A stretch of DNA of 64,000 nucleotides from Methanobacteriota archaeon (GCA_947084985.1 CAMTUI010000026.1:508-64507); one strand, 5' to 3'; shown: positions 4,549-32,720, counted from the first letter of the stretch. Notes: generated by a model from the letters alone, not told the origin. A program made the numbers and translations.

Positions 4549-5808
4549 TCAGAGGCTGACGCGGATCCGGCCCACAGGGCCCGCAACGACCATGGAACTC
4601 GCGGTGGGATCGAAGTACTTCTGGGAAACGGATCGAATGCGGTCTTCCGTGAGGTCGTTCATGATATCCGGGAAGCGCTCGAGGAAGTCCATCCCGAGGC
4701 CATAGTACTCCATGCGGTGCAGCTCCGTGGCGACCTCCGCGTTTCGCTCGAGGGACACGATCAACGCGCCAATCTGGTTGTCCTTGCCGTCGCGGATTTC
4801 GTCCGACGTGAGGGGCTCCCGCCGCAGGCGGTCCATCTCCGCGCGGATCGAGCGGATTGCCTGCGGGATGTTCGAGGGGTTCACGCCCGCGGCGATCGTC
4901 CACATCCCGCCCGCCGTCCGGGCCTCGAGGCTGCTGAACGCGTAGTACGCGAGGCCTTGCCCGTCCCGAAGGTTCTGGCCGAGTCGGCCGTACAAGCCGA
5001 TGCGACCGAAGAGGAGATTTGCGAGATGTAGCGCGTAGTAGTCGTCGTGGCAGCGCGAGATGGCAGGCGCGCCCACGGCGATGTCCGCCTGGGACTTGTG
5101 GGGCATCGGGATCCACAGGTTCCTCGGCCGGTATGGCGGGGGCACAGGGATGGCCGGACCGACGCGGCCGTTCCCCCGGAAGCGGGACAGGGGATTCGCG
5201 ATCGAGTCCTCGATGAACGCCCGGTCCACGTCGCCCGCGAGGGACAGGATGAGGCCTTCCGGACCGACGTGGGCCTCGTGGAACGCGACAACGTCGGCCC
5301 GGCGGATCCGCCTGATGCGGGTTTCGTTCCCCTTGGGATCCCGACCGTACGGATGGTCCTTCGGGAACACGCTCCGCGCGAGCTCGCGGGCCGCGCGGTG
5401 CCGCGGGTCGTCCGCTTCGATCCGCAGGTCGTTCCTCATCTCGCCCCGGACCCGCTCGACCTCCTTCGGAGGGAACGCGGGTTCCGAGAGACACTCCACG
5501 AGGATCCGGATCGTCTCCGCGGCGGTCTCCTGCGTGCATCGCCCTTGGAAGCCGAGGAGCTCCTCCGCGTTCCGGAATTCGAGGGTCGACCCGATCCCCT
5601 CGAGCCGATCCGCGAGCTTTGCCGCACTCCGGCGCTTCGTGCCGCTCAGCATCAGGCGGGCCATGAATTCCGCGATGCCGTGGTCGTCGGCTTCCGCCGC
5701 CATCCCGGCGGGCACGCTCCCGCGGAACGCGACGAACGGGTTCGCCGGCAGGGCTTGGGATACAAGGACTGCGCCGTTGTCGAGGACCGTGCGGTCCGGA
5801 AGGCTCAG
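4549..5808 (-). CDS. M16-family peptidase, non-catalytic subunit (degenerate zinc motif); the 5' end is uncertain
   Basis: The listed ORF 4549..5715 starts at a GTG, but the in-frame upstream translation 'LSLPDRTVLDNGAVLVSQALPANPFVAFRGS' looks like the conserved M16 N-terminus. 'HGIAEFMARLMLSGT' replaces HxxEH. Confidence 0.7.
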   Translation of the reverse strand: MSLPDRTVLDNGAVLVSQALPANPFVAFRGSVPAGMAAEADDHGIAEFMARLMLSGTKRRSAAKLADRLEGIGSTLEFRNAEELLGFQGRCTQETAAETIRILVECLSEPAFPPKEVERVRGEMRNDLRIEADDPRHRAARELARSVFPKDHPYGRDPKGNETRIRRIRRADVVAFHEAHVGPEGLILSLAGDVDRAFIEDSIANPLSRFRGNGRVGPAIPVPPPYRPRNLWIPMPHKSQADIAVGAPAISRCHDDYYALHLANLLFGRIGLYGRLGQNLRDGQGLAYYAFSSLEARTAGGMWTIAAGVNPSNIPQAIRSIRAEMDRLRREPLTSDEIRDGKDNQIGALIVSLERNAEVATELHRMEYYGLGMDFLERFPDIMNDLTEDRIRSVSQKYFDPTASSMVVAGPVGRIRVSL

Positions 5809-7085
5809 GAGGGGACCTCCTGGTGGTGGAATCGAACGACGGATCGATGCTCATCGACGAGGTACTTGCGCGCGACTCCGCGCACCTGCTCCGGCCGGAC
5901 CTTGAGGACCTCCGCGAAGAGGCCGTCCGTGAAATCCCAGGAGGCGAGGCCCTCGCTCACGCTCAGGAGCATCCCCTGGTATGTGACGCCATCCTGCTCA
6001 TAGCGGGACCAGGCGCGCACCTGCGCCTTAGCGCGCTCCATCTCGACCTTCGAGGGCGGGGCCTTGCGGAGCACGGCGACCTCGCGGTCCAGGACGTCCT
6101 CGACGCGGTCGAGGGACACGCCGCCCGCGAGGGTCACGTTCGCGATGAGCAGGGACGGATCGATCTTCATCTCGTGCCTCACGCCGACGTCCGTCGCGAG
6201 CTTCGTCTCCACGAGGGCGCGGTAGAGGCGGTTCGACCGCGGTCTCCACTCGCCCGCCGCGTAGGGGATGAAGCCGCGCCATCCGCCGAGGATCGTCGCA
6301 AGGAGGAGGATCGCCGGGGTGTCGTCGTGCGTGGCCGGCGGGATGTGCCAGCCCACGGAAAGGAGATCCGCGGCCCCCGGTCGGGACAGCTCGCCGCGCC
6401 GCTCCCCGTGCTGCTCCGGCTCCACGAGCGGCATGGGCTGCGGCGGCGCTTCCGGCCTGAGCGGCCCGAACGCCTCCCGGATGTGCTGCATCGCGACCGC
6501 CGCATCGAACCCTCCAACGAGAATCAGAGTCGCGTTGTTTGGCGCGTAGTACCGAAGGTAATGCTCGTACAGCGGGTCCCGCGCGAGCGCCGCGAGGTCT
6601 TGCTTGTACCCGATTGCGGTCCAATGATACGGGTGGACATGGAACGCAAGGCCCCACAACTCCTCCTCGACAAGGAACTCCGGTTGGTTCTCCGCCCCCT
6701 CCCGCTCGCTGATCACCACGGTCCGCTCCGCCTCGACCTCCTTGGGGTCGAAGGCCGCGTTTCGCATCCGCTCCGCCTCGACCATGAGGGCCGTGTCCAT
6801 CGCGCTCGCGGGGATCGTCTCGAAGTAAATCGTGTAGTCCGTGTCCGTGAACGCGTTGAATTTGCCGCCGAGGCGCGAGATGAGGCGGTCGATCTCCCCC
6901 TTGGCGAGCTTTCCTCCGCCCTTGAAGAGCATGTGCTCGACCCAGTGCGTCGAGCCCGTCATCCCGGGCCGCTCGTTCCGCGAGCCGATCCGGTACGTGA
7001 CCCACGTGGACAAGGCCTTCGTCTCCGGGATCGGTCGAAGGATGACCTTCAGCCCGTTGTCGAGGGACTCGACATGGGTGGCCAT
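5805..7085 (-). CDS. M16-family zinc peptidase (pitrilysin/insulinase-like), catalytic subunit
   Basis: 'GSTHWVEHMLFKGG' carries the inverted HxxEH zinc motif. I chose the start at ATG 7085 (MATHVESLDNGLKV) rather than the listed 7271. Confidence 0.85.
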   Translation of the reverse strand: MATHVESLDNGLKVILRPIPETKALSTWVTYRIGSRNERPGMTGSTHWVEHMLFKGGGKLAKGEIDRLISRLGGKFNAFTDTDYTIYFETIPASAMDTALMVEAERMRNAAFDPKEVEAERTVVISEREGAENQPEFLVEEELWGLAFHVHPYHWTAIGYKQDLAALARDPLYEHYLRYYAPNNATLILVGGFDAAVAMQHIREAFGPLRPEAPPQPMPLVEPEQHGERRGELSRPGAADLLSVGWHIPPATHDDTPAILLLATILGGWRGFIPYAAGEWRPRSNRLYRALVETKLATDVGVRHEMKIDPSLLIANVTLAGGVSLDRVEDVLDREVAVLRKAPPSKVEMERAKAQVRAWSRYEQDGVTYQGMLLSVSEGLASWDFTDGLFAEVLKVRPEQVRGVARKYLVDEHRSVVRFHHQEVPS

Positions 7086-7137
7086 ACGGGCCGCGGAAAC
7101 GGGCCCGATGGATAAAGAGTTGCGTGGGCGGCCCTGC

Positions 7138-7686
7138 TCACGGGCCCTCGGACGCTGACGTTCGCAGGACGAACTCGCAGACCGAATCGCCCGTGCCACG
7201 GCATGTCGTCTCGATGCAAGAGATGCCCTCGGCCCAGAAGAGGGCGCGGAAGAAACCCGCGAAGTAGCCACGCAGGAAGTGGCACGCCGGACGGTCCCAG
7301 GTCCCTTCCTGCCCGTACGTCTCCAAGGTCCGCGTGAGTCGGAGTCGGGCCTGTCGGCTCTCCCGGTCCACCTCGATCGACGACACGGCGAACCAGCCGC
7401 ACCGGGAGTACACGTCGCCCAGGTGGTCCACGATCTCCATCGGGTCCTGACTGCCGGTCCATCGAGCCATCGTGCCGACGAACGCTTCGCCCGCCTCGAG
7501 GCCGCTGCGGTACAGGAGGTCGTCCGCGGCGGGACCGAGCGTCGCCCGGACCTCCCGAAAGAACCGCCGCAAGGTGTCCCGCGAGATCACGACCACGGGG
7601 ACGGTCGAGAGACGCGTGTCCGCGGTCCTCGGCTTCGTCGTCAGCTGCCAGAACTCGTCGATGTCTCGGATCGCAGATCTCACCAC
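7138..7686 (-). CDS. V4R domain-containing protein
   Basis: The C-terminal pattern 'CHFLRGYFAGFF...CIETTCRGTGDSVCEF' is typical of V4R (4-vinyl reductase) small-molecule-binding domains. Confidence 0.65.
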   Translation of the reverse strand: MVRSAIRDIDEFWQLTTKPRTADTRLSTVPVVVISRDTLRRFFREVRATLGPAADDLLYRSGLEAGEAFVGTMARWTGSQDPMEIVDHLGDVYSRCGWFAVSSIEVDRESRQARLRLTRTLETYGQEGTWDRPACHFLRGYFAGFFRALFWAEGISCIETTCRGTGDSVCEFVLRTSASEGP

Positions 7687-7689
7687 GGC

Positions 7690-8820
7690 TGTGTGTTCAG
7701 CGCCAAAGCTCGGCTTAAACCGCGGGCCGCGAGAATCAGAGGTGATTACCGGCCTTGACGGGATCGATATTCACGGCCGGCGAGCTTGACCGACGATTAC
7801 CTCCCTGGCTTGTCTTTTGTGGCGCCGAGGCGCTGTCCCTTTGCATTCAGCTCCTTCATTCGTCTGTAGAGCGCCTCTCTGGTAGCCACGACCCTCCGCG
7901 AAAGAGGGGCGAAACCGTTTGCGTCGCGGCCCTGCCGCGTTCTCCTCTTGTGCCTTATGAATTGCAAGAGGACGACCGCCTGCCTCCGATTGACCTGGAG
8001 ATATGGCAAGGCCGACAACAAGAGCTGCTGGACCATTCGGTCGGACCACACCAATTGATAGGCATGCTTCCAACCGATTTTGACGGCAGGCTGGTTCACA
8101 AGGATCCCTCCAAAGGCTCGCTGCAGGTCCTCGAGTATGACCCTATCTGTGTTGCTGACACACACCCGCGCTCGGTACTGAAGTCCCCGATGCCTCCGAC
8201 TCTCCGATCGCGCAATCATCAGACAACCCTCCGCATCGATGAAACCGGCCAGGTATTCCGAGGAAATGGTCCGAGATTCTGATTTACGAGCAGTGTTGTC
8301 GTGACCCCTGGAAACTGAAACCGATCCCCTTTTGTTCAGGAGCTTAAGGCGCCTGTAGAAGGCGTCGCGGATTATCAACTCCCGCCCCGAAAGGGACAGA
8401 AGGCGTCCGAGTCGATCTCTCCTCCGGCGGGATCCTCGGACATGGAAAACGAACTCACGCAATGCTGCAGCCTGTTTCGACTTAACCCGCAAGAAGGGCG
8501 AAACCTTTGTCAGCAATCTTGCGGCGGCTGCGTTTGTCCAGACCAGAGCGTACTGGGGCTTCCATCCGGGGCTCCTCGGACCAACGCTCACAAAAATTCC
8601 ACCTGAGAACCTCTGGATTTGGTTCAAGATCGGTCGATTTGTATTGGTAATGGACACCCTGGCGCAATATTCGTGCGGTCGGTCGCGCCGAGGTATCCGT
8701 GCGATTGAGAGATGCCCCTCGCCGTCTACAAAACCGGCAAGGTATTCGACGGAGAGCACGGCCGACGGCCAGAGAGCATGGGGAAAGCCTAAGGTTCAGG
8801 GAGGGAGGTTGGTGAAAGTG
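7690..8820. mobile_element. Lower-GC island carrying the homing endonuclease gene
   Basis: Hand count gives 30/60 G+C at 8281..8340 versus 38/60 at 9001..9060. The island is bounded by the V4R gene and the Pup-like ORF. I found no terminal repeats. Confidence 0.45.
7797..8759 (-). CDS. Free-standing LAGLIDADG homing endonuclease (two-domain)
   Basis: Two LAGLIDADG motifs are present, 'YLAGFVDGEGHL' at the N-terminus and 'YLAGFIDAEGCL' mid-protein. The gene is visibly lower in G+C than its flanks. Confidence 0.85.
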   Translation of the reverse strand: MLSVEYLAGFVDGEGHLSIARIPRRDRPHEYCARVSITNTNRPILNQIQRFSGGIFVSVGPRSPGWKPQYALVWTNAAAARLLTKVSPFLRVKSKQAAALREFVFHVRGSRRRRDRLGRLLSLSGRELIIRDAFYRRLKLLNKRGSVSVSRGHDNTARKSESRTISSEYLAGFIDAEGCLMIARSESRRHRGLQYRARVCVSNTDRVILEDLQRAFGGILVNQPAVKIGWKHAYQLVWSDRMVQQLLLSALPYLQVNRRQAVVLLQFIRHKRRTRQGRDANGFAPLSRRVVATREALYRRMKELNAKGQRLGATKDKPGR

Positions 8821-8997
8821 CTAAGCGCGCCTGTCTCCCCCTTCCCCCTTTTGCGCCTTGAATCTTGCCGAGTCCAGGTCGAGTTCGAAGTCCTCTTCCT
8901 TGACTTCGCTCGGGGTAAAGACCTTGCCGGCCTCAAACTCTAGCTTCTTTTCCTGCTTCTTCCGCTTCTTCGGCTTTTCCTCAACCTGCTGTGGCAT
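8821..8997 (-). CDS. Pup/UBact-like small protein (58 aa), not in the ORF track
   Basis: Hand translation gives MPQQVEEKPKKRKKQEKKLEFEAGKVFTPSEVKEEDFELDLDSARFKAQKGEGGDRRA. The ATG at 8997 overlaps the stop of the upstream ligase gene by 17 nt. The acidic helix plus 'FKAQKGE' resembles the Pup C-terminus 'YVQKGGQ/E'. Confidence 0.6.
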   Translation of the reverse strand: MPQQVEEKPKKRKKQEKKLEFEAGKVFTPSEVKEEDFELDLDSARFKAQKGEGGDRRA

Positions 8998-10279
8998 AGG
9001 CCGCCTCCAGTTTCGTGGCGTATGGATCCAGAAGATCGATACGCCGCCGCGTCCCGTCGTTCACGATGACCATCGACCAATCAATCATCTCGATATCGAA
9101 GGTGTCGCACAGCTCCCGTCGCAGGTGTGCTCGGGTGTCTTCCGGCGGCTCGTGGATCGCGTCCTTGATCGCCTCGTCGTCCGTGATCCGGTCGATGAGC
9201 CCGGCCCGTTGTCGCTTGTAGAACAACGAGCGCTCCGCCCCGATCTCCGAATACTGCTTGCAGGCCATCATCTCGACGTCCGACCCGGACTTCTTCTCCA
9301 CGGCCTCCTGGATCGCGAAGTATCGATCGAGCCACTCGACGCGCCGCGCCGCGTCCTTCGAGCGCCGGTTCTCGAGATCGTCGAGGACCTCTTCGAGGAT
9401 TCGCAGCGCCCTGCGTTCGCGGTGATCCTCCGCAAGCGGCTCGATCTTCCCCAAGTAGTACCGCTGGATGTCGACCGGCGACACGACGGATCCGTCCTCG
9501 AGTTCCACCCGCCATTGCTCCGGGTTCCGCGTCTCGACATTGCGCCAGAGGTCCTTCACCGGGTCCTTCAGGCGAGGCACATCGTCGAGTTGTCCGGCCT
9601 CCATGAGCTGCAAGATAGCGGAAGTCGTGAAGTGGCGGAGCATGATGGCGGTTTCGTTCATCAGCGCGTCGCCGACGATCACGTGGAGCCGACGCCATAC
9701 GCGGCCATCCGCATGGGGCTCGTCCCGCGTGTTCAGGATCCCCGTGTCGTGCATTGTCTCTCCGCTGATCACCTGGGAGGTCAGGAACGCCATCGGCGAC
9801 AGCACGTACTTGCCGCGGACGATGTCCCCCGCGCCGGTGTAGATGAACCGCGTGGCGAGATGCGGAACGAGCTCGCGGATGAAGCGCTGCGGGAACGCGA
9901 CGTCCCGCGACACGCAGTAGTTCTCGTGGGATCCGTAGGACGTCCCGTCGGGTGAGGTGTTGTTCTTGAAGGCGTGGATCTTCGTCTCCGAGGAGATGTA
10001 CTTCTCCTCCATGACGCGCCGAAGCCAGTCCAGGACCTTCTCCCCGGCCTTCTCCCAGACCACGACGTCGTGGAAGTTCGTCGTCTCCGCCGTGCTGACC
10101 TCGAAGTGCCCGACGTCGTAGTAGACGCGGGAGCCGTTCGTGATGAACTCGCCCGCGAGGTGGAGGTCCGATTCCCGCAAGAGGTCGAGGGCCATCATGT
10201 GGGGATCGAACCCCATCGTGCCCATCTTGCGGCAGTACAGCGTGTACTCGTGCTCGGTCCCCTGGATCATCTTCTTCAT
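8981..10279 (-). CDS. PafA/Dop-family Pup ligase/deamidase homologue (carboxylate-amine ligase fold)
   Basis: Motifs line up with PafA: 'GTEHEY' (GIETEF), 'NGSRVYYDVGHFEVSTAE', 'FKNNTSPDGTSYGSHENY' and 'LNTRDEPHADGRVWRRLHVIVGDALMNE'. It is 432 aa, and I saw no long Dop-type loop. Confidence 0.85.
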   Translation of the reverse strand: MKKMIQGTEHEYTLYCRKMGTMGFDPHMMALDLLRESDLHLAGEFITNGSRVYYDVGHFEVSTAETTNFHDVVVWEKAGEKVLDWLRRVMEEKYISSETKIHAFKNNTSPDGTSYGSHENYCVSRDVAFPQRFIRELVPHLATRFIYTGAGDIVRGKYVLSPMAFLTSQVISGETMHDTGILNTRDEPHADGRVWRRLHVIVGDALMNETAIMLRHFTTSAILQLMEAGQLDDVPRLKDPVKDLWRNVETRNPEQWRVELEDGSVVSPVDIQRYYLGKIEPLAEDHRERRALRILEEVLDDLENRRSKDAARRVEWLDRYFAIQEAVEKKSGSDVEMMACKQYSEIGAERSLFYKRQRAGLIDRITDDEAIKDAIHEPPEDTRAHLRRELCDTFDIEMIDWSMVIVNDGTRRRIDLLDPYATKLEAAYATAG

Positions 10280-10282
10280 GCA

Positions 10283-11842
10283 TCACCCGACCATCGGATC
10301 CGCACCGGTCCGGAAGACCTCGCGCTGCCGCTTCTCGTACACGTACATCTCCGTGATCGCGTGCTCCTTGCACTCCTCGTCGATGGCCATCTCGAAGTCC
10401 CGCAGGCTCAGGCCCTCCTTCTTCCGGTCGGACTTCTTCAGGAGAATGACCCGCTTCACGAAGTTCTTCTTCGCCGTGGTGACGATGGCCTCGATGATCG
10501 CGCCCGAGATGATGTCCTTGCGCTTCACGGTCTTGATCGCTTCCTTCGCCTCGGCGTCGAGCTTCACCCTGACCCACTTGTTCTCTCCGTAGAGCTCGTC
10601 CAAGACGAACTTGCGGAGAGTGTCGATTGCCTCCGAGCGGCCGCCGTACTGCTGCTCCAGCTCGGATGCAACGGGGAGCTCCTCGTTCAGGTAGATCCGC
10701 AGGATCTCCTCGGCCGCCATGCGCTCGGGCCGCGGGATCTCGATGATCTCGTCGAAGCGGCCCGGCCGCAGCAGGGCGGGGTCCACGAGGTCCGCGCGGT
10801 TCGTCGCTCCAATCACGAAGACATCGTGGAGCTTGATGAGCCCGTCCATCTCGCTCAGGATCTGCGCGATGATGTTCTTGTGCACGCCCGACGTGTCCAT
10901 CATGCCACGCACGGTGAAGAGGGCCTCGATTTCATCGAAGAAGACGATGCTCGGCTTCTTCTCGTGGGCCTGGCGGAAGATCTCCTTGATGATCCGCTCC
11001 GACTCCCCGACCCACTTCGAGAGGACATCCGCGATGCTGACGTTGAAGAACGTCATGTCGTTCTCCGTCGCGATCGCCTTCACGAGCAGCGTCTTGCCGC
11101 AGCCCGGAGGACCGTACAGGAGGATGCCGCGTGGCGCCTCGAGATTGATCTGCTGGAACAGCTTGGCCTCCTGGTACGGGAGGACGACGACGTCCTTAAT
11201 CCGCTCGATCGCCTCCATCAGCCCTCCGATCTGGCCGTACGTCACGTTCGGCTTCTCGCCGAGCAGGAGGGATTTGACCTCGAGGTTCGGCAAGATATCG
11301 AGGACCTCCATCGTGGGAGGGAGGACGCTGATCTGGAATCCCGGCTTGAGCTTCTTGTAGACACCCTTCTCGCAATCGATCAGCCGCTTCTCCATGTCGC
11401 CCTCGACGGAGATCACGAGCTTGCCGTCCATCATGTCGGCGACCTTCGCGATCACGCCTTCGTTCCGCACGGGAGAGCCTTCGACGATCGCGTAGGTCTG
11501 CGGGTGGACCCACACATACTGACCGACCCCGAGCTGCGCCTTCTCGACGAGACCGGTGGAGACCTTGAGCAGTTCCGTCGCGCGCGCGACGACCACCTGG
11601 TTCCCGTCGAGGTCCGGTCCCTCCTTGCGCACGACGTACGCGTAGAGGAGCGGCGGCTGCTTGATCTTGTTGAACTTGTCCTCGTACGCCTTCAGGCGGT
11701 ACTCACGCTCCTCGATCTCGTATCGGAAGGAATGGAGATCGCGTTCGTACTGTCGGCGCAGGCGGTCCATTTTCTCCTCGAACTCGTCGCGCACTTCGTC
11801 CGCAGACTTCGACGCCTTTCCATCGCCTTCGTCGCTCGCCAT
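10283..11842 (-). CDS. Mpa/ARC-type AAA+ ATPase (proteasome-associated-ATPase-like)
   Basis: It has an N-terminal coiled coil and an OB-like region, plus Walker A 'GILLYGPPGCGKTLL' and Walker B 'IVFFDEIE'. The post-AAA segment 'ILRIYLNEELPV...ISGAIIEAIVTTAKKNFVKRVIL' parallels Mpa 'IYSKYLTEFLPV...[22 protein letters not shown]'. Its stop lies 3 nt before the ligase ATG. Confidence 0.85.
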   Translation of the reverse strand: MASDEGDGKASKSADEVRDEFEEKMDRLRRQYERDLHSFRYEIEEREYRLKAYEDKFNKIKQPPLLYAYVVRKEGPDLDGNQVVVARATELLKVSTGLVEKAQLGVGQYVWVHPQTYAIVEGSPVRNEGVIAKVADMMDGKLVISVEGDMEKRLIDCEKGVYKKLKPGFQISVLPPTMEVLDILPNLEVKSLLLGEKPNVTYGQIGGLMEAIERIKDVVVLPYQEAKLFQQINLEAPRGILLYGPPGCGKTLLVKAIATENDMTFFNVSIADVLSKWVGESERIIKEIFRQAHEKKPSIVFFDEIEALFTVRGMMDTSGVHKNIIAQILSEMDGLIKLHDVFVIGATNRADLVDPALLRPGRFDEIIEIPRPERMAAEEILRIYLNEELPVASELEQQYGGRSEAIDTLRKFVLDELYGENKWVRVKLDAEAKEAIKTVKRKDIISGAIIEAIVTTAKKNFVKRVILLKKSDRKKEGLSLRDFEMAIDEECKEHAITEMYVYEKRQREVFRTGADPMVG

Positions 11843-12128
11843 CTGTGGATCACCGCGTGCGTATGCCCGCGAGTCGGCTGGGAATCAGGAGCATCTGCTC
11901 TTCGGACGGAAGTCCATGGAACAAGATGCGGCCTCGTCCCATCCCTTGTTAGAAAGTGGCATCCTGAATTAAAGCTTTTGTTATCGGTATTGAGCCTGCG
12001 ACGAACCAAGTTCCGCTGCGCTCTGCTGACGGATGTGCGCCTCCGTTAAACGCCCGCGCGACATCCGAGCGCGCAGACGTGTTTGTAGTAGCAATAAGAC
12101 CAAAAAGGGAGGCGCCGGTCCGCGGAGC

Positions 12129-12710: not shown

Positions 12711-13856
12711 TCACGCCAGACCGTGAATCGGGAAGAGCGTGCGGCGGATCTCATCGACCGTGCGCTTCGCCTGTCGGGGCACATGGGCGTCCTCGTCCGC
12801 TCGCTCATGGTCGCGGAGGGACTTGTCCGCCGGCACGGAGCCGACGAGCTGGTTGCACTCCCGCAGCCATTCCGCGGGGATCGCGTCCTCGAGGTTCGCG
12901 CCGACCATCTTGGAGAACAGGAGAGTCCAGACCCGGGGGACCGCGGTCAGGTCGTAACCGCCTCCCGCCACGGCGATCCAGCGTCCGCCGCACAGTTCCG
13001 TCGAGAGGCCGTCGAGGATCCGGCCCACGGCCTCGTACGTCTCCGTCGTGAGCATGAGGTGGGTGAGCGGGTCCATGTGGTGCCCGTCGGCCCCGAGCTG
13101 GCTCACGATGACTTCCGGTTGGAACGCGCGGGCAAGGGGCGGGACAATTTCTTGGAACGCGTAGAGATAGGATACGTCGCGCGTGTACGGCGGCAGGGGC
13201 ACGTTCACGGAGAAGCCCCGTCCGGGGCCCTCGCCGATTTCGTCCGCGAACCCGCTGCCGGGGAACAGGTAGTGGCCGTCCTCGTGGAGGGAAATCGTCA
13301 TGACGCGCGGGTCCTCGTAGAAGATCGCCTGGACGCCGTCGGCATGGTGCGCGTCGACGTCGACGTACAGGATGCGCTTGAGCCTGAATTCCTCCAAGAG
13401 GGATGCGATGCCGATTGCCACGTCGTTGAGGATGCAGAACCCGCTCGCCTTGTCGCGCATCGCGTGATGGAATCCGCCGCCGAGGTTGAACGCCCGCACG
13501 TGGCGGCCCGACACGACCTCTTCGCATGCGCGGGCCGTCGCGCCGACCTGGAGGGCCGCGGCCTCGTACATGCCCGCGAAAACGGGATTGTCCGCGGTCC
13601 CGAGTCCGTGCTCGTACGACGTGCCCGAAGGATCCGCGCTGAGCTTCCGCACAATCCCGAGGTATTCGGGCGAGTGAACGCGCAGGATCGCGGCGTCGCC
13701 GGCCGGCGCGGGCCGTAACTCGTCCACGCCGTCGCGAATCAAGCCGTACGAAGCGATTAGGTCCCGCGCGAGCTTGAGCCGGACCTCCCGCAACGCGTGC
13801 TCTTTCCCGAAATCGTATCGGAGAAACTCGTCGTGGTACAGGAGGGCGGCCCGCAC
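12711..13856 (-). CDS. Histone deacetylase-family enzyme (AcuC/acetoin utilisation or acetylpolyamine amidohydrolase type)
   Basis: Contains 'GGGFHHAMRDKASGFCILNDVAIG' and 'YVDVDAHHADGVQ'. Confidence 0.85.
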   Translation of the reverse strand: MRAALLYHDEFLRYDFGKEHALREVRLKLARDLIASYGLIRDGVDELRPAPAGDAAILRVHSPEYLGIVRKLSADPSGTSYEHGLGTADNPVFAGMYEAAALQVGATARACEEVVSGRHVRAFNLGGGFHHAMRDKASGFCILNDVAIGIASLLEEFRLKRILYVDVDAHHADGVQAIFYEDPRVMTISLHEDGHYLFPGSGFADEIGEGPGRGFSVNVPLPPYTRDVSYLYAFQEIVPPLARAFQPEVIVSQLGADGHHMDPLTHLMLTTETYEAVGRILDGLSTELCGGRWIAVAGGGYDLTAVPRVWTLLFSKMVGANLEDAIPAEWLRECNQLVGSVPADKSLRDHERADEDAHVPRQAKRTVDEIRRTLFPIHGLA

Positions 13857-13949: not shown

Positions 13950-14560
13950 TCAGAGCAGCCAGCCACCCGTGACGCCGATCACGTCGCCCGTGACGAACTC
14001 CGCCTCGTCGGAGACGAGGAACAAGACAGCCGACGCGACGTCTGCACCGGTGCCCGACCGACCAACGGCGGTCTGCGAATCCTTCCGCCGGCGTGCGGCG
14101 GAGGGACGGAGATCGGGATCCTCGATGATGCCGGGAGAGACGACGTTCACTGTGATGCCATGGCGGCCGACCTCCCGCGCGAGAGACTTCGTGAACGCGA
14201 CGATTCCCGCCTTTGCGGCGTAGAACGCGGACATGTCCGCGGACCCGTGGGCCCGGTAGGCGCCGGCGGCGCCGAGGTTCACGATGCGCCCCCACGCATT
14301 GCGGCGCATATGCCTCGCCGCGTATTTCGAGCAGAGGAACGTGCTTGTGAGATTCGAATCGAGGATGCGACGCCAGGTCGCGAGGTCCATCGTCTCGACC
14401 GGCTTGACGACTCACTCTCCCACGTTGTTCACGAGGATGTCGAGCCGACCGAAGGACCGTGGCCCGGCGTGCCGCCTGGAGAGCCGCCCGTCCAGCCGCC
14501 GTCTGAGCCTTCGCAGCCCCCGCCGCAGCCCCCGTCGGCACCCTAGCCGGGGCGACTCGA
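13950..14560 (-). pseudogene. Short-chain dehydrogenase/reductase remnant (in-frame TGA, N-terminal Rossmann motif missing)
   Basis: The C-terminal 146 aa are intact ('SADMSAFYAAKAG' carries S...YxxxK). Upstream, in the same frame, the sequence reads '...FGRLDILVNNVGE-TGA-VVKPVETMDLATW'. No TGxxxGxG appears in any of the three minus-strand frames I translated between 14415 and about 14650. Confidence 0.55.
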
Positions 14561-14880
14561 GGGCGTTCGCTCGGTCGTCGAGCAACGAAAAGAAGGGGCC
14601 ACCCGGCAGGCCGGGCGGATGGAATACTGGAAAAGAGGTTACTGGCGCTCGCTCGCGGTCAGGCGGACGGACTTGACGGAGACATCGTCGCGCCGGACGA
14701 GGAGACGCGTGAGACTGGGCAGGATGAGAGGCAGCATCGAAGCACCTCCTCCGGCTCAGCGGTTGAAGGAGAAGCGGGGCGCGACCGAATACCAGGCGAG
14801 CGCTCCGGGCGTCTCCTTCAGGACCTTCCGGGATTCCTTCACGATCTTCGTGAGTTTCACATTATCACATCGTTTTGATG

Positions 14881-23263: not shown

Positions 23264-26200
23264 ATGCGTCCAGCCCTCGCGGTCACGCTAGTTCTTGCCC
23301 TCATCGCCAGCGTGCTCGCGGCCCCGCTCATCGTCGCGCATCCGGCGTCCGCGGATCCGTGGCCGACGAACAACGGAGACGGCACGTCGGTGGTCCTTTG
23401 GAACTTCACGAATCCGTCCGACTACGCGCTCACGGACGCGGAAGTCATCGGCGGGAGCGCTGCCCTCAAACGGCAGCTCGGGTGGTGGAACAGCACGAGT
23501 GCGGCAGACTTCACGGGACCCGACAGCGCCACGAACGCGAACTGGACACGTTGGCCCGGGGACGTCGTCATGGATTCCGTGGCCGGGCCGTCGACCCTCG
23601 TCACGATCCAGCCCGATGGGGCGACGGGCCTCGATGCCTATCTGGATCGCGGCAACGCGGACACGAACCGTGGTGCCGACGCGAGCATGGTCTTCGAGCC
23701 CCGCGGGTCAACCACTCGGCGGCCGATCCTTCAGTTCAGCCTTTCGGCTATCCCTGCAGGCGCGCTCATCGACGACGCAAAGCTCAGCCTTTACATGAGC
23801 GGCGCAGCGGCGAATTCTCCGGTGGCGGAAGTCCATTCGGTGACCGCGGCCTGGAACGAGGGTCAGGTTACCTGGAACAACCGCCTGACTGCGACGCCGT
23901 GGGGGAGTGCCGGGGGCGACTTCGTTGCCCATGTCGTCGATCAGTTGAGCCTCAACGCATCGCTAGGATGGAAGACGTGGAACGTCACGCAGCTCGTCGA
24001 CCTGTGGTATCGTGGGCGCCTCTCGAGCAACGGCCTTATCCTCACGGGCCCCACGACTGGACCGAACTTCGACAAGACGTTCTGGTCCTCTGATTATGCG
24101 GTAGACCCCAGCCTCCGTCCGAAGCTCGAGGTACGGTACCGAGTCATCGGGGCCGCCGGTGAGTACGTTTCCCGCGTCGGGGGGCCCGGTTCCCTCGTCG
24201 CCTGGGACTCCATTTCCTGGAACATGACGGAACGATCCTTCGCGACGGATGAGTTCGCCGGATCGTCCCTGGATCCAAAATGGACGTGGACAAACCCGCC
24301 CACCTCGTACGACGTCGGCACGACGACACCGGGGAGCCTCCATGCGGTATCGACGACAGGCGGGGACCTCGACGGAGCCACGTTCTCGGGCAACGTGCTC
24401 GCGAACGAAGTGGCGGGCGACTTCACCGCAATCGCGATGATCAGCGGCGACCCGACCGTAAGCGGGCAAAAACACGGACTCATGGTCCTGCTCAACAGTC
24501 GCAACTGGTACGCAATCCAGAAGGTAAACGCTTCGGGGAGCGTCAACTGGCAGGCGAAGTCCACCGCCGATGCCGCCACCGTAATCCGCGCGAACGTCGC
24601 GAGCGGGAACCCCGTTCCGGCGTGGTACCGGATCGGGCGATCCGGGAACACCTTCACGGCGTCAACGAGCTCCGATGGTGTTTCTTGGACCACACGGGAC
24701 ACGTACACGCCCGCGTTCGAGTATCCCCTCGAGGTCCGGATTGCCGTTTTCCTGACCGACGGACTCTCCGGGACCGCCCACACGGTCGATGCTGACTACG
24801 TCCGCGTGAACATCAGCAACGACGCCACGGTCGCCGTGAGCACGAGGACGGGGAACACGAGCACGGTGGACGCCTCCTGGTCCGCGTGGTCCGCACCGTA
24901 TCCTGCTCCGTCCGGTTCCCCCATGTCGGGGCGCACGAACTATGCACAGTTCCGCCTGACCTTGTCCGTCGCGTATCCGGATCACACGCCAAACATCGGC
25001 GACGTGAACATCTCCTGGACGACGTACCCGGCCTCGGGGACCGTCGAGACCGCGGATTTCGCGCCGGGCGACTTGGCGGAGTGGGACACGTTCGACGCCG
25101 TCCACACACTCAATGGACAGACGGTTGCGTACGCCTACTCGACGGATTCCGGCGGAAACTGGACCCCGTTGACACCGCCGCAATTCCTCCTGGGGGTGAG
25201 TACCGCCAGCGGAACAATCCGCTTCCGCGCGACACTCTCAACGGCGAGCGCGACCCTCACGCCGGTTGTCCGCGAGATGCGCCTCACGTATCGGCACATG
25301 CTGGACCACTTCTACGTGACGGCGTCATCGACCGCGACAGCGGGCGCCTCCTTCTCCATGACGGTGACTGCCAAGGACGCGGGCAACGCAACGATGACCT
25401 GGTGGACGGGCACCGTCACCCTTGACGCGGTACTGCCGGACGGCGTCACCCCCGCAAGTGGGGTCCTCGGCGTGACGAGCCTCGCGATTTCCGCAGGTGG
25501 CACGGCCACCTTGACCACGGAAACGTACACGAAGGCCGAGGTCATCCGGATCCGCGCAAGCCTCGGAACCGTGTCGGGTCTGAGCGGCCCGATCGATGTC
25601 TCTCCGGGCTCACTGAATCGAATCGCCGTGACGCCGAACGACGTCACTCTCCTTCCGTTCGACGGCCAGATTCTCACGGCCACCGGCTACGACGCCTGGA
25701 ACAATGTGATCTCAGTCCTCCCCTTCGGTTGGTCCGTCACCGGGGGCGTCGGGAGTTTGAACCTCTCTACCGGACCGAGCGTGAATTTCACTGCGAGTCC
25801 CCCGCCCGCGAACGGGATCGTCGAGGCGTCCGTTGGCGCAATCGTGGGGATTGCGCAAATCCATGTTGTCTCGGGCATCCGGCCGTGGGTCACGATCTCA
25901 GCGCCGGCGAGCGGAGACCATCTGACCGGCGCCGCGTCAGTTGATTACACGAACAGTTCCGATGCGGTGTCGATCCGCTTCGAGTACGACGACGGATCCG
26001 GATGGACGCTCATCGGGATGACGGTGACACTCAATGGGACGTTCCTCTGGGACACGACGGGACTCGACTTCGCGGGCGGGAGCCTTCGGGCGATCGTCAC
26101 GAACAATCGGGCGACCACGAACACGACGACAGTGACTCCGATCGAGGTCGACAATACCCCGCCCACCATCACGGTTGGCTCGGCTGTCGATTCGCAGTCG

Positions 26201-29200
26201 ACGAGCGGGACAATCACGCTCACATACGCAACATCACCCGATGTCGTCCAGGTTAACTTCGCATACTTCGACGGGGCATGGAACTCCATCGGTTCCGACG
26301 TCACCGTTGACGGCTCCTACGTGTGGACGCCCGGCATCCCGATCAACGGAGTGACGGTCCGCGCAACCGCCGTGGACGAGGTGGGCCTATGGGGAACCGG
26401 CGAGAGACTAGGGATTGGCAACCGCACCGTGGGCACAAACCCGCCATCAATCCAAGGGATCCCGGCCCTCCACGTTCGCGTGGGCACGGCGTACGGCCTG
26501 AACCTCAGCTTCTACGTCTCCGATCCCGACACGGGTCTCGCGTCCCTCTCGATCACGGTCGCGGATCCTGCGAACGTCACGGTCCTCGGTGGCCCCTACC
26601 CGAGCCTGACGATCACCTACGGGACATCGGGCACCTTCGTGCTCACTGTGTGGGTGTCCGACGGTATCGACACCGCCTGGGCCTTCCTCACAATCATCGC
26701 CTCCGGCGTGAGCCCGCCTGTCGTCCTCCTAAATCCTCCGGCGGTGGCCTTCGATGAGGATACGACCTCGGTCAACGGATTCGGCGTACCGGCCGGAACG
26801 TTCATCGATGATCCCGACGGGGACCCCCTCACGTTCGAGGTCCTCGGAAACCGGACGGTACACGTCCGAGTGAACGCGGGAGGGACAATCGACTTTTGGG
26901 CCGATCCGAACTGGTACGGCTCCGAAGCGATGCGACTCCGCGCAACGGATCCCACCGGCGGATTCGCGGAGACCTCCTTCATCGTCCTCGTGCGGTCCGT
27001 CAACGACGCGCCCATCCTCGCTCTGATCCCGGACCTCTCAATCGACGCAGCTGTGACATACATCCTTAACCTCGGTCCGTTCCTTTCCGACGTCGACACC
27101 CCGCTTTCCTCCGTGACCGTGACGACGGACAGCCCATACGTCACGGTGAACGGACACATCCTCACCCTGGCGTTCCCGTCCGATTGGACGAACGCCGATA
27201 TCCAAATCACCGTCTCCGATGGCTCGGCGGTCGCGCTCCAGACCGTGCGGGTGGCGTTCCGCGTCACCCCGACCTGGTGGAGCTCCCCCTACGTGCTCGC
27301 AATCCCGCCTATCGGTGTATTCGTGGTGGTAGCCATGTTTGCGCAACGCGCGCGCTGGAGGCCGACGAAGGCCTTCCTTGTGGACGAACGCGGTCGAATG
27401 ATCAGGGAATTCACCCTGGATCCCTCCTGTCAGGTCACGTACGACGAGGCCGTGCAGGCGGGCGCCTTGGAGGCCGTCGAGAAGCCGATCAAGGTGGCCA
27501 AGTACCACGCCCAGACGGTCCGTGGGGACGCCCTCGCGGTCGTCCTCCTGGCCGTCGGCCCCGTGACCGTGGAGCAGGTCGAGTTCGCGCGGGAGATGCT
27601 CGTCCAGATTCAGGACAAGTTCGAGGACACGGTGAAGTCCCGCCTCGAGGAAGCGCGGGCGTACGAGGCGGAACTCGAGGGGCAGGCGAATTCGATCGGG
27701 GAGCAGCAGGCGGCCATGGAGGGACGAGCCACGGAAATCGAATCCATGATCCAGCAGGTCGAGGTCGCGCAGTCGAAGGTCTCGACGGAGACGGCGGCTC
27801 TCGCCACGCGAGAGCAATCTCTCGAGGCCCGCGAGCGGCAGGTCGCCGAAGACCGACGGGTCGTGGACGACTTGGCACGCCAGCTCGAAGAGCTTCGCGT
27901 ATCCCTCGAAAATAGAGGCGCGAAGATCCAGGAGCAGGCCGGAGAGGTCGTTCGGAGGACGGAGGCCATCGTCGCGAGGGAGAATGCGATCGCCCCGCAC
28001 GAGGAGGCCCTCGCGAAGCGGGAGGAAGGGATCGCCGCGGCGGAAGCGGCTCTGAAGGCCCAGGCGGAACTCATGGACAGGAAGGCATCCGACTTGGCGG
28101 CCCAGGAGCACGTCCTGGCCGAGCGCGGGGCCGTTGTGACAGACGAAGAGGAGGAACTCCGTGCCGCACAACAGGCGTTCGAAGATGACCAGAAGGAAGT
28201 GCTGGATTTCCGAGCGTCGATTGACTCCCGCGTTGCGGCCGTGGAAAAAGCGGAGTCGGATATCGCATCGAATCGCAAGGAACTCGAGGACCGCGAATCG
28301 CGCATCACGCCGAAAGAAAAGGAACTTCAAGAACGGGAGTCCGCCCTACTGGACAGGGAAACGGCCATCCAGGCGGAGATCGCCAAGCGCACGAAACATC
28401 TCGAAGACCGAGAGGCCCAGCTTTCCCAGGAGGCGGAGCAGCTCCAGACAAAGAGCCAGGAGATCGAACAGAGTCTCCGATCCATCGAGACCCAGTCGAA
28501 CGAGCTGTCCGCCGAGCGAACGAGCATCGACGAAGGTCGCGCGGCTCTGGAGCGCGAACGAGCCTCCTTGGAGAGACGCATTCAGACACTGGATGCCGAG
28601 CTGCGAACGCGAAAGGAGGACCTCGACGCTCAGGCACGAGCGGTGGCGGACGGACAGCTTCAGCTCTCTCAGGACAAGCAGACGTTTGACGGGCTGAGGG
28701 GCGAGAAATCCCATTGGATCGCATCGAAGGAGATTGAGCTCGAGTCGCTGGAACAGGCCCTCTCCGAAAAGGAGGCGGCCGTCCGCTCGCAGGCCGAGCA
28801 GAACGCGCAGCAGCTCGCGGACCTGGCCGCCCGAGAGGAGACCCTCGAAATCGAGGCGGATCGGCTCGAGAAGGACCACGCCGAACTCGACGCGCGCAAG
28901 GGCGAGCTCGACAAGCTCGCGAAGAACCTCGACGCGAAGGCCGTGCAGCTTCGCGAGGAAGAGGCCCGCAAAGCGGAAGAGTACCGCACGTGGCAGGCAA
29001 CCCTAGAGTCGGAGCAGACCCTCCTGCGGCAGCAGCGGGAGACCTTCGAGAAGGAAATGTCCGACCTCCGCGACTCCTGGGCCGCCCGAATGCTCCGCAT
29101 CCAGGAGCGCGAGGAGAATGTTGCGGCGCGCGAGGAAAAGGCAGGCGAGGGCATTGAATGGGCCGCGAAGGCCGAGGAAGAAGTAACGCGCCGCGAGAAG

Positions 29201-32115: not shown

Positions 32116-32720
32116 TCATCGTCGCGTCGCCTTTCGCATCGCCCGGTCGAAGTCCTCGAAGAGATCGTCGATGTCCTCGAGGCCTACGCTCACGTGCACG
32201 AGGCCTTCCGTGACCCCGCTCACGCGTCGCTCCTCGTCCGTCAAGGGTCCGTGAGTCATCGACGCGGGATGCTTGACTAGGGTCTCGACGCCGCCGAGGC
32301 TCACCGCGAGGGTGGCTACATCGACGGACTCGACGAACCGTTTCCCGGCGCGGTAGCCGCCCTTCAGCTCGAAGCTCACCATCGCGCCGAGGCCCGACAT
32401 CTGCTTCCGGGCGAGGGACCGCTGCGGGAACGACTTCAACCCGGGATAGTGCACGACCTTCACGGCGCGATGGTCCTCGAGGAACTCCGCAAGGGCTTGC
32501 GCGTTCGTCCCGTGAGCCACCATTCGCAGGGGCAGCGTCTTGAGTCCGCGCCGGAGCCGTTGCGACCGCGAAATCGGCACCTTGCTTCGCGGATTCTAGA
32601 ACCCAAGTCGACGTCGCGTAGATCGGCGTGACGATGGGGCGATGGCCCTTCCTCCGCCGTCCGTGGATCGCCTGCGTCTTGGGCCTCCGGCGCCGGGCCA
32701 CGGGGCCGGGCACTGCGACA
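32116..32720 (-). pseudogene. Cys/Met-metabolism PLP enzyme (cystathionine gamma-synthase/O-acetylhomoserine sulfhydrylase family) remnant with a large internal deletion
   Basis: The N-terminal motif 'TQAIHG...PIVTPIYATSTWVLESAKQGADF' is in one frame. It joins directly (about 32565..32580, with a frame change) to the family C-terminus 'LRRGLKTLPLRMVAHGTNAQALAEFL...SLGGVETLVKHPASMTH...VSVGLEDIDDL'. The PLP-lysine core is missing. Confidence 0.6.

Follow-up and report, generated by a model that had tools for sequence, protein, structure and literature searches.

Introduction

The closest described counterpart of the locus presented here is the actinobacterial Pup-proteasome system, which comprises the Mpa/ARC ATPase, Dop, the modifier Pup, PafA and the PrcBA proteasome. 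The founding comparative study (PMC2588565) and recent reviews place pupylation in bacterial lineages only, and the prevailing picture is that bacteria invented it, whereas archaea rely on tags of the beta-grasp SAMP or Urm1 type. The bacterial PafA and Dop paralogues are genomic neighbours, the 20S genes share the neighbourhood of the Pup system in most bacteria, and the end of Pup alternates as G[E/Q] (PMC2588565); a terminal Gln needs deamidation to Glu before ligation (PMC8599861; PMC2588565). Here we describe a three-gene operon located in a 64,000-nucleotide (nt) stretch of DNA, hereafter the window, from Methanobacteriota archaeon (GCA_947084985.1 CAMTUI010000026.1:508-64507); the host contig is archaeal and belongs to a metagenome-assembled genome (MAG) of Thermoplasmata, from an uncultured archaeon living in soil. 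The operon encodes an Mpa/ARC-like AAA+ ATPase, an enzyme of the PafA/Dop family (hereafter the ligase) and a small protein that is a candidate modifier, and on balance our analysis favours reading it as a pupylation-like tagging system with one enzyme, at home in a Thermoplasmata lineage that has no cultured member.

Several properties bring the window operon close to the actinobacterial system. Its gene order is that of mpa-dop-pup, the catalytic core residues of its ligase are identical, its ATPase is predicted to share with Mpa a helix at the N-terminus, an OB region and an extension past the AAA module, and its small protein is likewise short and charged, with an E/Q alternation in the C-terminal motif. 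Other properties set the two apart. Where Actinobacteria have a ligase and a depupylase, the window has one enzyme, orthologous to neither and devoid of the Dop-loop. The candidate modifier misses the Pup family model and continues past the E/Q with an invariant GGDRR[T/A/S], R201 of PafA is replaced by Thr, the GQYL end of Mpa is replaced by PMVG, and the host is an archaeon with no 20S genes linked to the operon.

Outside Actinobacteria, Pup/UBact-type loci are sporadic and divergent, with cases among Gram-negative bacteria in Nitrospirae, Nitrospinae, Verrucomicrobia, Armatimonadetes and Planctomycetes, and the UBact modifiers are hard to recognise by sequence save for their C-terminal G[E/Q]. 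The UBact C-terminus, ...RYRQRTGE, seems comparable to the ...RFKAQKGE of the window protein in the basic and aromatic context that precedes the E/Q. As for the archaeal tags, SAMPs have the beta-grasp fold, and an adenylating enzyme of the E1 type activates them at their C-terminal Gly-Gly. The route from SAMP or Urm1 through PAN or Cdc48 to the 20S proteasome resembles the system proposed here in that lysines are tagged with a small protein and a link to the proteasome is presumed, but the analogy is functional only: chemistry and folds are unrelated, the window enzyme being a glutamine-synthetase-fold ligase with a Glu side chain as its proposed target, and its ATPase being Mpa-like rather than PAN-like.

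Results

Conservation and origin of the operon

An initial annotation of the window, made from the sequence alone, had read the locus as a bacterial-type pupylation module embedded in an archaeal gene neighbourhood. The open reading frame (ORF) check bore out the gene order and spacing that it gave (coordinates in Table 1): 3 nt separate the ATPase stop from the ligase start, and the small ORF overlaps the end of the ligase gene by 17 nt. A GGAGG Shine-Dalgarno sequence is placed 8 nt 5' of the small-ORF ATG. In the databases, the window falls within contig CAYJUO010000002.1 (190 kb, assembly GCA_964373375.1). The window gene calls also returned the archaeal-type flanking genes it had listed (Dph2, archease, GatD, GatE and an RPA-like OB protein) and the single PafA/Dop gene it had counted.

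We found close relatives of the ligase (61-91% identity) at 52 loci representing approximately 50 species-level genomes, and the MAGs that carry them are labelled Thermoplasmata, Methanomassiliicoccales, Methanobacteriota or Euryarchaeota, with no other label among them. The order ATPase-ligase-small ORF is kept wherever the related contig extends far enough, with strict linkage and tight spacing in the 30 loci that cover all three genes. The same synteny recurs in >45 independent assemblies, and an HDAC-family gene is conserved upstream of the operon in the related loci.

Two observations could speak for an assembly chimera, a bacterial contamination or a very recent horizontal transfer into an archaeal bin: pupylation is otherwise described from bacteria only, and the total GC content drops to 0.60-0.61 at 8-12 kb, compared with 0.63-0.68 in most of the window. 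The dip is due to Lys/Glu-rich coding and to a LAGLIDADG gene with a GC content at third codon positions (GC3) of 0.645, while the GC3 of the ATPase (0.91) and of the ligase (0.88) matches that of their neighbours (0.84-0.90). Because the same synteny, archaeal flanks included, recurs in dozens of independent assemblies and GC3 is like that of the neighbouring genes, a chimeric or bacterial origin of the contig is excluded, and the claim that a module with the mpa-dop-pup order resides natively in an archaeal genome stands. Transfer fares no better, since the closest sequences beyond the family are distant: among 1.84 billion cluster representatives, the best match to the ligase outside the family is 40% identical and the rest are at most 38% identical. 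We consider this whole class of explanations scarcely credible, and the enzymes are no recent bacterial import.

The PafA/Dop-family enzyme

In concordance with the PafA/Dop signatures noted initially, residues 38-403 of the ligase matched the Pfam Pup_ligase profile (PF03136) with 301.3 bits against a cutoff of 25. The core residues G7, E9, E11, R51, Y53, D55, E60, E65, K105, H118, E119, R144, N183, R197, H199 and D204 are invariant with respect to bacterial PafA and Dop, so that the catalytic, nucleotide-binding and Mg-binding motifs (GxExE, R-x-Y-x-D, E60/E65, H118-E119 and R197-x-H199) are intact. D55 corresponds to D64 of Corynebacterium glutamicum PafA and to D94 of A. cellulolyticus Dop and is invariant in two alignments. 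The AlphaFold2 (AF2) model (pLDDT 94, pTM 0.93) predicts a glutamine-synthetase-like beta-sheet cradle followed by a small C-terminal domain. It reached TM-scores of 0.89-0.90 to Dop (7oxy and 4b0r, Pup-bound Dop included) and of 0.85-0.87 to PafA-Pup (4bjr), the next folds being YbdK/GCS2 with a TM-score of ~0.5. The ligase is genuinely of the PafA/Dop fold and has the full core residue set.

Its place within the family is less simple. The NCBIfam models for PafA (TIGR03686) and Dop (TIGR03688) gave 258.5 bits (cutoff 551.3) and 257.2 bits (cutoff 492.3), respectively, the latter aligning only from profile position 72. The margin in favour of PafA is thus 1.3 bits, while bacterial representatives are split by >100 bits. 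Because the two models tie and both scores are far under their cutoffs, the ligase is an orthologue of neither PafA nor Dop. The Dop-loop, a stretch of 40-65 residues before strand beta2, is found in all Dop and in no PafA (PMC8599861). No such insertion exists between beta1 (GTEHEY) and beta2 (EFITNGSRVYYD) of the ligase, at the place where the three Dop representatives aligned carry it.

We then placed the ligase in a neighbour-joining tree, which is distance-based and unrooted (the nearest outgroup fold, YbdK, is ~12% identical). The window family grouped with P0250, P0263 (from a Nitrososphaerales MAG) and P0283 opposite 39 bacterial-type representatives of PafA, Dop and intermediate enzymes, and the split between archaeal-context and bacterial-type ligases had 100% bootstrap support in 200 replicates. 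P0250 and P0283 come from MAGs with archaeal-type flanking genes. The term bacterial-type used in the initial annotation misleads for the ligase, which is orthologous to neither bacterial enzyme and lies across a fully supported split from them, in the company of archaeal-context enzymes. Since these fall outside the sampled bacterial PafA and Dop in the unrooted tree, the archaeal-context ligases may predate the PafA/Dop duplication. Across 568 kb, made up of the window and the related loci, there is one PafA/Dop gene per locus.

The small protein

The small protein has 164 homologues, mostly of 57-60 amino acids (aa) among the 120 listed, and among the matches listed those with a name are called hypothetical protein and come from Thermoplasmata MAGs. 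Wherever a related locus reaches far enough, its gene comes immediately behind that of the ligase, the two overlapping or abutting. The protein is highly charged, with a Lys-rich N-terminus, two essentially invariant blocks (KLEFEAGKVF and K[ED]EDFELDL) and the C-terminal motif A-x-K-G-[E/Q]-G-G-D-R-R-[T/A/S]. Of the 117 aligned sequences, 64 have E at position 52, another 52 have Q and one has V, between invariant flanks, and Fitch parsimony over 38 loci yielded at least 8 independent E/Q switches with the neighbouring residues unchanged. By analogy, this switching reads as the pattern of the terminal residue of Pup.

The G[E/Q] pair is not at the extreme C-terminus: in 116 of the 120 family proteins listed, the chain goes on from it with GGDRR[T/A/S]. 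Across 47 loci the GGDRR of this tail shows zero amino-acid change, although four codons are used for Gly, two for Asp and five to six for Arg. Its invariance despite free synonymous variation shows that the tail is translated and that purifying selection maintains it.

The small protein was matched by none of the Pfam and NCBIfam models, including Pup (PF05639) at E<=10, either with the full-length sequence or with one cut at E52; as a control, Mycobacterium tuberculosis Pup scored 79.7 bits on PF05639. Homology to Pup by sequence was dropped, the Pfam Pup search and a hidden Markov model (HMM) of the family being both null. Consequently, the description of the protein as Pup-like stands in part: its size, position and E/Q motif agree with Pup, and the family match and the ending at E/Q do not, the chain running six residues further. 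At 58 aa it lies within the 50-90 residues of Pup and its gene adjoins that of a PafA-family enzyme. The proposed role as a modifier is argued from position, size and the conserved C-terminal motif, not from homology.

The C-terminal tail and the Arg-to-Thr change

In the PafA-Pup crystal structure, a weak salt bridge from R201 is the only contact to the residue at Pup's C-terminus (PMC8599861). PafA R201 and Dop R221, at the position that follows the alpha-loop, align with T179 of the ligase (numbering checked against 4b0t and 4b0r). Among the 129 aligned sequences from outside the family, 126 have R or K here, and the tail-less sister lineages P0250, P0263 and P0283 have R. Within the family the residue is Thr without exception, both in the 8 sequences aligned and in the 116 members whose motif could be located. 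Of all changes specific to the family at conserved ligase positions, T179 is the most radical. Loss of the Arg is what would be expected of an enzyme that never meets a free alpha-carboxylate at residue 52, the tail being still attached at binding.

The M16 peptidase pair that follows the operon was considered as a source of tail-processing protease and rejected, as it is restricted to the closer subclade and the divergent subclade has unrelated genes at that place. Among the related loci, no protease gene is conserved beside the operon family-wide. Retention of the tail, with ligation of an internal Glu, and its removal by an unlinked protease are roughly even, with a slight lean to retention because of T179 and of this lack of a family-wide linked protease gene.

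The ATPase

As proposed initially, the ATPase has 519 aa and carries GPPGCGKT (Walker A, residues 244-251); the pore loop (KWVGE at 276) and Walker B (at 301) are intact as well. Its best NCBIfam model is pup_AAA (TIGR03689), with 350.8 bits (cutoff 504.75) and a collinear alignment over residues 43-494. PAN models reached 193-269 bits (cutoffs 500-750) and covered only the AAA core, within residues 130-396, the best of them giving 268.9 bits over residues 130-387. Congruently with its first description, the protein resembles Mpa/ARC rather than PAN and is collinear with the former past the AAA module. The ATPase of a bacterial control locus (L058, Nitrospinota) scored 638.5 bits on pup_AAA, above cutoff. 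In a search of PDB sequences Mpa aligned to residues 96-467; the AAA core alone was nearer the D2 domain of Cdc48/VAT.

The AF2 model of the ATPase has a pLDDT of 58, and only the rank order of its fold matches was used. It predicts a helix at residues 14-59, an OB region at ~65-185 with beta-rich stretches at 66-112 and 130-184, the AAA module and a post-AAA extension of ~120 residues; OB_C, a weak match, is the sole Pfam OB domain detected. The helix block has a pLDDT of 72-85 over residues 11-50 and of ~52 over 51-60, and residues 14-59 are nearly invariant across 42 homologues with 73-92% overall identity. In Mpa it is the coiled coil that binds Pup (PMC12288473). The near-invariance of the helix is consistent with a binding surface, as in Mpa, and by this analogy we regard it as a candidate docking surface for the small protein.

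With regard to the start of the gene, other gene callers add 40 poorly conserved codons (11843-11963, minus strand) and thus report 559-aa versions; in the window this extension is broken by an in-frame TGA, and the conserved start is the ATG at 11842. A GGTGA motif precedes this ATG and a TATA-like TTTAAT lies ~125 nt upstream.

Table 1. Features of the three-gene operon (window coordinates).
Feature	Position	Strand	Basis
Mpa/ARC-like AAA+ ATPase, 519 aa	10283..11842	-	ORF and profile match
PafA/Dop-family enzyme, 432 aa, gamma-glutamyl-amine ligase fold, without Dop-loop	8981..10279	-	PF03136
Candidate modifier, 58 aa	8821..8997	-	Position, size, C-terminal motif
ATPase residues 14-59, predicted long N-terminal helix/coiled coil	11666..11803	-	AF2 and conservation
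ATPase C-terminal octapeptide TGADPMVG	10286..10309	-	Homologue comparison
Ligase D55 codon, catalytic Asp	10115..10117	-	Alignments to 4b0t, 4b0r
Ligase T179 codon, aligned with PafA R201 and Dop R221	9743..9745	-	Alignments to 4b0t, 4b0r
Small-protein E52 codon, predicted conjugating residue	8842..8844	-	E/Q alternation
Small-protein tail GGDRRA codons, past the E/Q position	8824..8841	-	Codon comparison

Comparison with other loci

Loci with the same kinds of genes exist in other archaeal-context lineages (Table 2). L054, L056 and probably L060, whose upstream gene is cut at the contig end, hold an ATPase, a ligase and a small ORF, in L054 in the same order as in the window. They are like the window in their compact single enzyme, their small ORF and their Mpa-like ATPase (in L060 only the GGMFG end is seen), and their ligases lie on the same side of the fully supported split. 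When compared by eye, the ...RFKAQKG-E/Q of the window family lines up with the [G/A][E/Q] that closes the small ORFs of four further archaeal-type loci. The small ORFs of those loci stop at that point, whereas the window family has its tail, so that the window family is the lineage with the C-terminal extension. In addition, the other archaeal-context ligases, which are 31-40% identical to that of the window, carry R or K at the PafA-R201 position.

Table 2. Loci from other archaeal-context lineages with a PafA/Dop-family enzyme and a small ORF.
Locus	Source	Arrangement	End of small ORF
L054	MAG, archaeal-type flanks	ATPase-ligase-small ORF	...FHRKARDGE*
L056	Nitrososphaerales MAG	ATPase-ligase, then convergent small ORF	...LYRARSAE*
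L060	MAG, archaeal-type flanks	Partial upstream gene (ends GGMFG)-ligase-small ORF	...LVRARSGQ*
L059	Pacearchaeota, Tara contig	Small ORF upstream of ligase, no adjacent ATPase	...YTQNSGE*

The Pacearchaeota locus stands apart. There (L059, 1102-2666) a 61-aa ORF ending in ...NSGE precedes a 440-aa Pup_ligase gene, and archaeal RFC genes adjoin, as seen in this DPANN contig from Tara Oceans. Unlike the other archaeal ligases, this one clusters with bacterial-type sequences, and it has no adjacent ATPase. The bacterial control from Nitrospinota (L058) differs in another manner: it encodes, in this order, an ATPase, a Dop-like enzyme of 511 aa, Pup and a PafA-like enzyme of 471 aa, that is, two paralogues, and its Pup is detectable with Pfam and ends in GGE, whereas the small protein of the window matches no model.

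Two further loci on metagenomic contigs, L061 (305-3288) and L062 (880-3991), contain tandem divergent Pup_ligase genes (462 and 532 aa, and 470 and 546 aa, respectively) with no adjacent ATPase. In both pairs the leading gene encodes Trp where PafA has R201, and in L062 a 47-aa ORF ending in SGE comes after the pair. These look like yet another type of PafA-family locus.

Other genes of the window

The gene just upstream of the ATPase (12711-13856, minus strand) encodes an HDAC-family lysine deacetylase. It is present in most related loci with a captured upstream region, those of the divergent subclade included (49-76% identity), and lysine deacetylation might conceivably be tied in function to lysine tagging. 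The small ORF is followed immediately by a free-standing double-LAGLIDADG endonuclease gene (7797-8759, minus strand), whose GC3 of 0.645 departs from the 0.84-0.91 of its neighbours. It occupies the same position in ~30 of ~45 related loci with 43-59% identity, compared with 70-94% for the flanking genes, and would be either a mobile gene that has persisted at one site or one that has become domesticated. In the closer subclade only, the operon is followed on the same strand by the pair of M16 peptidase genes (4549-5715 and 5805-7271, both minus strand) and, in some of its loci, also by a V4R-domain gene (7138-7686, minus strand).

Farther away, a giant ORF of 2772 aa (23264-31582, plus strand) has domains only near its N-terminus (CBM96, disaggregatase repeat and ConA-like) and coincides with a strong AT skew of 0.34-0.38; it probably encodes a surface or cell-envelope protein. 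A short-chain dehydrogenase gene (13950-14390 and 14412-14585, both minus strand) appears truncated, being without its N-terminal third; the NNVG motif found a short way upstream in a different frame points to a frameshift or to faulty assembly. Finally, a 154-aa fragment (32116-32580, minus strand) that matches only the C-terminal 142 positions of a Cys/Met PLP-enzyme profile is apparently truncated.

Discussion

The working model that follows is proposed from the gene content of the operon, the homology of its two enzymes, their intact catalytic residues, and the conservation and phyletic spread of the three genes; each biochemical step in it is conditional. The 432-aa enzyme, with ATP, would phosphorylate the gamma-carboxylate of E52 of the small protein and transfer the tag onto lysines of target proteins. 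In genomes with Q52, it would first convert the Gln, either by deamidation or directly via an acyl-phosphate intermediate. The same enzyme would probably be the one that deamidates, and possibly the one that removes the tag. We assign both jobs to one enzyme because there is one PafA/Dop gene per locus, because the bacterial paralogues are neighbours and because the ligase is equidistant from PafA and Dop. PafA itself is reported to be able to remove and transfer Pup (PMC5358908). The Mpa-like ATPase would bind the tag at its N-terminal helix, unfold and thread the tagged protein and most likely hand it to the archaeal 20S proteasome. As for the six-residue tail, it would be either removed by a protease, exposing a terminal E/Q, or kept, with the internal glutamate being ligated.

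Several observations weigh against this reading, and those that concern the proteasome come first. Searches with Thermoplasma subunit sequences returned no 20S genes from the window, where the initial annotation had already seen no prcAB, nor from the related loci (568 kb); with none near the module, the proteasome link is an assumption. Moreover, the ATPase terminates in PMVG, with the exact terminus TGADPMVG shared by 101 of 120 homologues, and lacks the penultimate Tyr of Mpa (GQYL/GxYx, the latter defined as a 20S-docking motif in PMC6466877) and of PAN (HbYX). The ATPases of two other archaeal-context lineages end in GGMFG, likewise without that Tyr, and that of a third ends in VEYQ. Such ends and the unlinked 20S genes would suit a system with the same tagging chemistry in which the ATPase works independently of the proteasome, as a stand-alone unfoldase or disassembly machine. 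Corynebacterium, with Pup, PafA, Dop and ARC but no 20S proteasome, offers a precedent in which such a role has been proposed, reportedly by Kuberl et al. in 2016 (cited in PMC12288473). On the other side, archaeal proteasome genes are commonly unlinked from their ATPases. The C-termini of the archaeal-context ATPases are strongly conserved across lineages as [DG][PG]M[VF]G, a sign of some form of docking role, and all archaea encode 20S proteasomes (PMC12288473), so that a partner is available. A proteasome-independent ATPase is in our judgement an unlikely arrangement, though one to be taken seriously.

The remaining difficulties concern the enzyme, the fold of the ATPase and the small protein. 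A second PafA/Dop paralogue may exist elsewhere in the genome. The Foldseek ranking in which M. tuberculosis Mpa accounts for 29 of the top 30 matches to the ATPase was obtained with the low-confidence model. The Arg-to-Thr change and the tail map to one branch, so that their co-variation amounts to n=1. Three representatives outside the family have neither R nor K at the R201 site: two, in two-paralogue loci, have W, and the small ORF beside one of them (L062) ends in SGE; the third belongs to a locus that has one enzyme and lacks both an adjacent ATPase and any evident G[E/Q] ORF. As a test of the link between Arg loss and tail, these outsiders are uninformative or mildly contrary. The predicted conjugating residue sits six positions before the C-terminus, unlike that of every described Pup (PMC2588565), and with the HMM built from 117 family members the other archaeal small ORFs and two bacterial Pups scored no better than shuffled sequences.

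These last points also bear on the proposal that the small protein is not a tag at all but a substrate, a regulator or a precursor peptide. The enzyme would then add a small amine to E/Q52 or act only as an amidase, and the ATPase would act on something else. The small protein without detectable Pup homology and the internal E/Q agree with such a role, as does a catalytic core slightly nearer the amidase Dop than PafA (188 versus 152 bits in the PDB search; TM-score 0.89 versus 0.87). Nevertheless, the Dop-loop is absent, and unless a tag is recognised it is difficult to see why all three genes, one of them for an Mpa-like unfoldase, should be so strictly linked. Small ORFs ending in G[E/Q] lie beside the same enzyme in other archaeal lineages, in a form suited to conjugation, and the conservation of the protein over its full length is too high for a simple precursor peptide. 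Taken with this evidence, a role other than that of a tag seems improbable.

Within the tagging model that we prefer, a more specific version can be formulated: an archaeal form of pupylation in which a single enzyme ligates the internal glutamate, the tag being a branched peptide with a free six-residue tail. Such a form may predate the PafA/Dop duplication and could have arisen in archaea and then moved to bacteria together with the proteasome and an ARC-type ATPase. We offer this combination as speculative and, as a whole, rather doubtful.

With respect to novelty, we found no description of archaeal pupylation in the literature, in a search that was not exhaustive, so that a prior account is possible. 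The initial annotation, which held pupylation to be unreported from archaea, was right as far as papers go. It was not right for the databases, where the ligase already bears the label PafA2 family protein in records of Thermoplasmata, Nitrososphaerales and Pacearchaeota MAGs and the ATPase is labelled proteasome-associated ATPase by JGI. The mere presence of homologues is already visible there, and the module is not unique to the window contig. What appears to be undescribed is the lineage-wide conservation in archaea, the single-enzyme organisation, the candidate modifier family and the C-terminal extension with its matching Arg loss.

If our reading is true, a native operon in many archaeal species would give archaea a second kind of protein tag, and a natural one-enzyme system would be at hand in which to ask how the ligase and depupylase activities diverged. 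The origin of the Pup-proteasome system would be reopened as a question. The system is approachable with three small recombinant proteins. Furthermore, if the internal glutamate is ligated, this enzyme family would need no free C-terminal residue, which would bear on the PafA-based proximity-labelling tools that now need a free Pup C-terminus.

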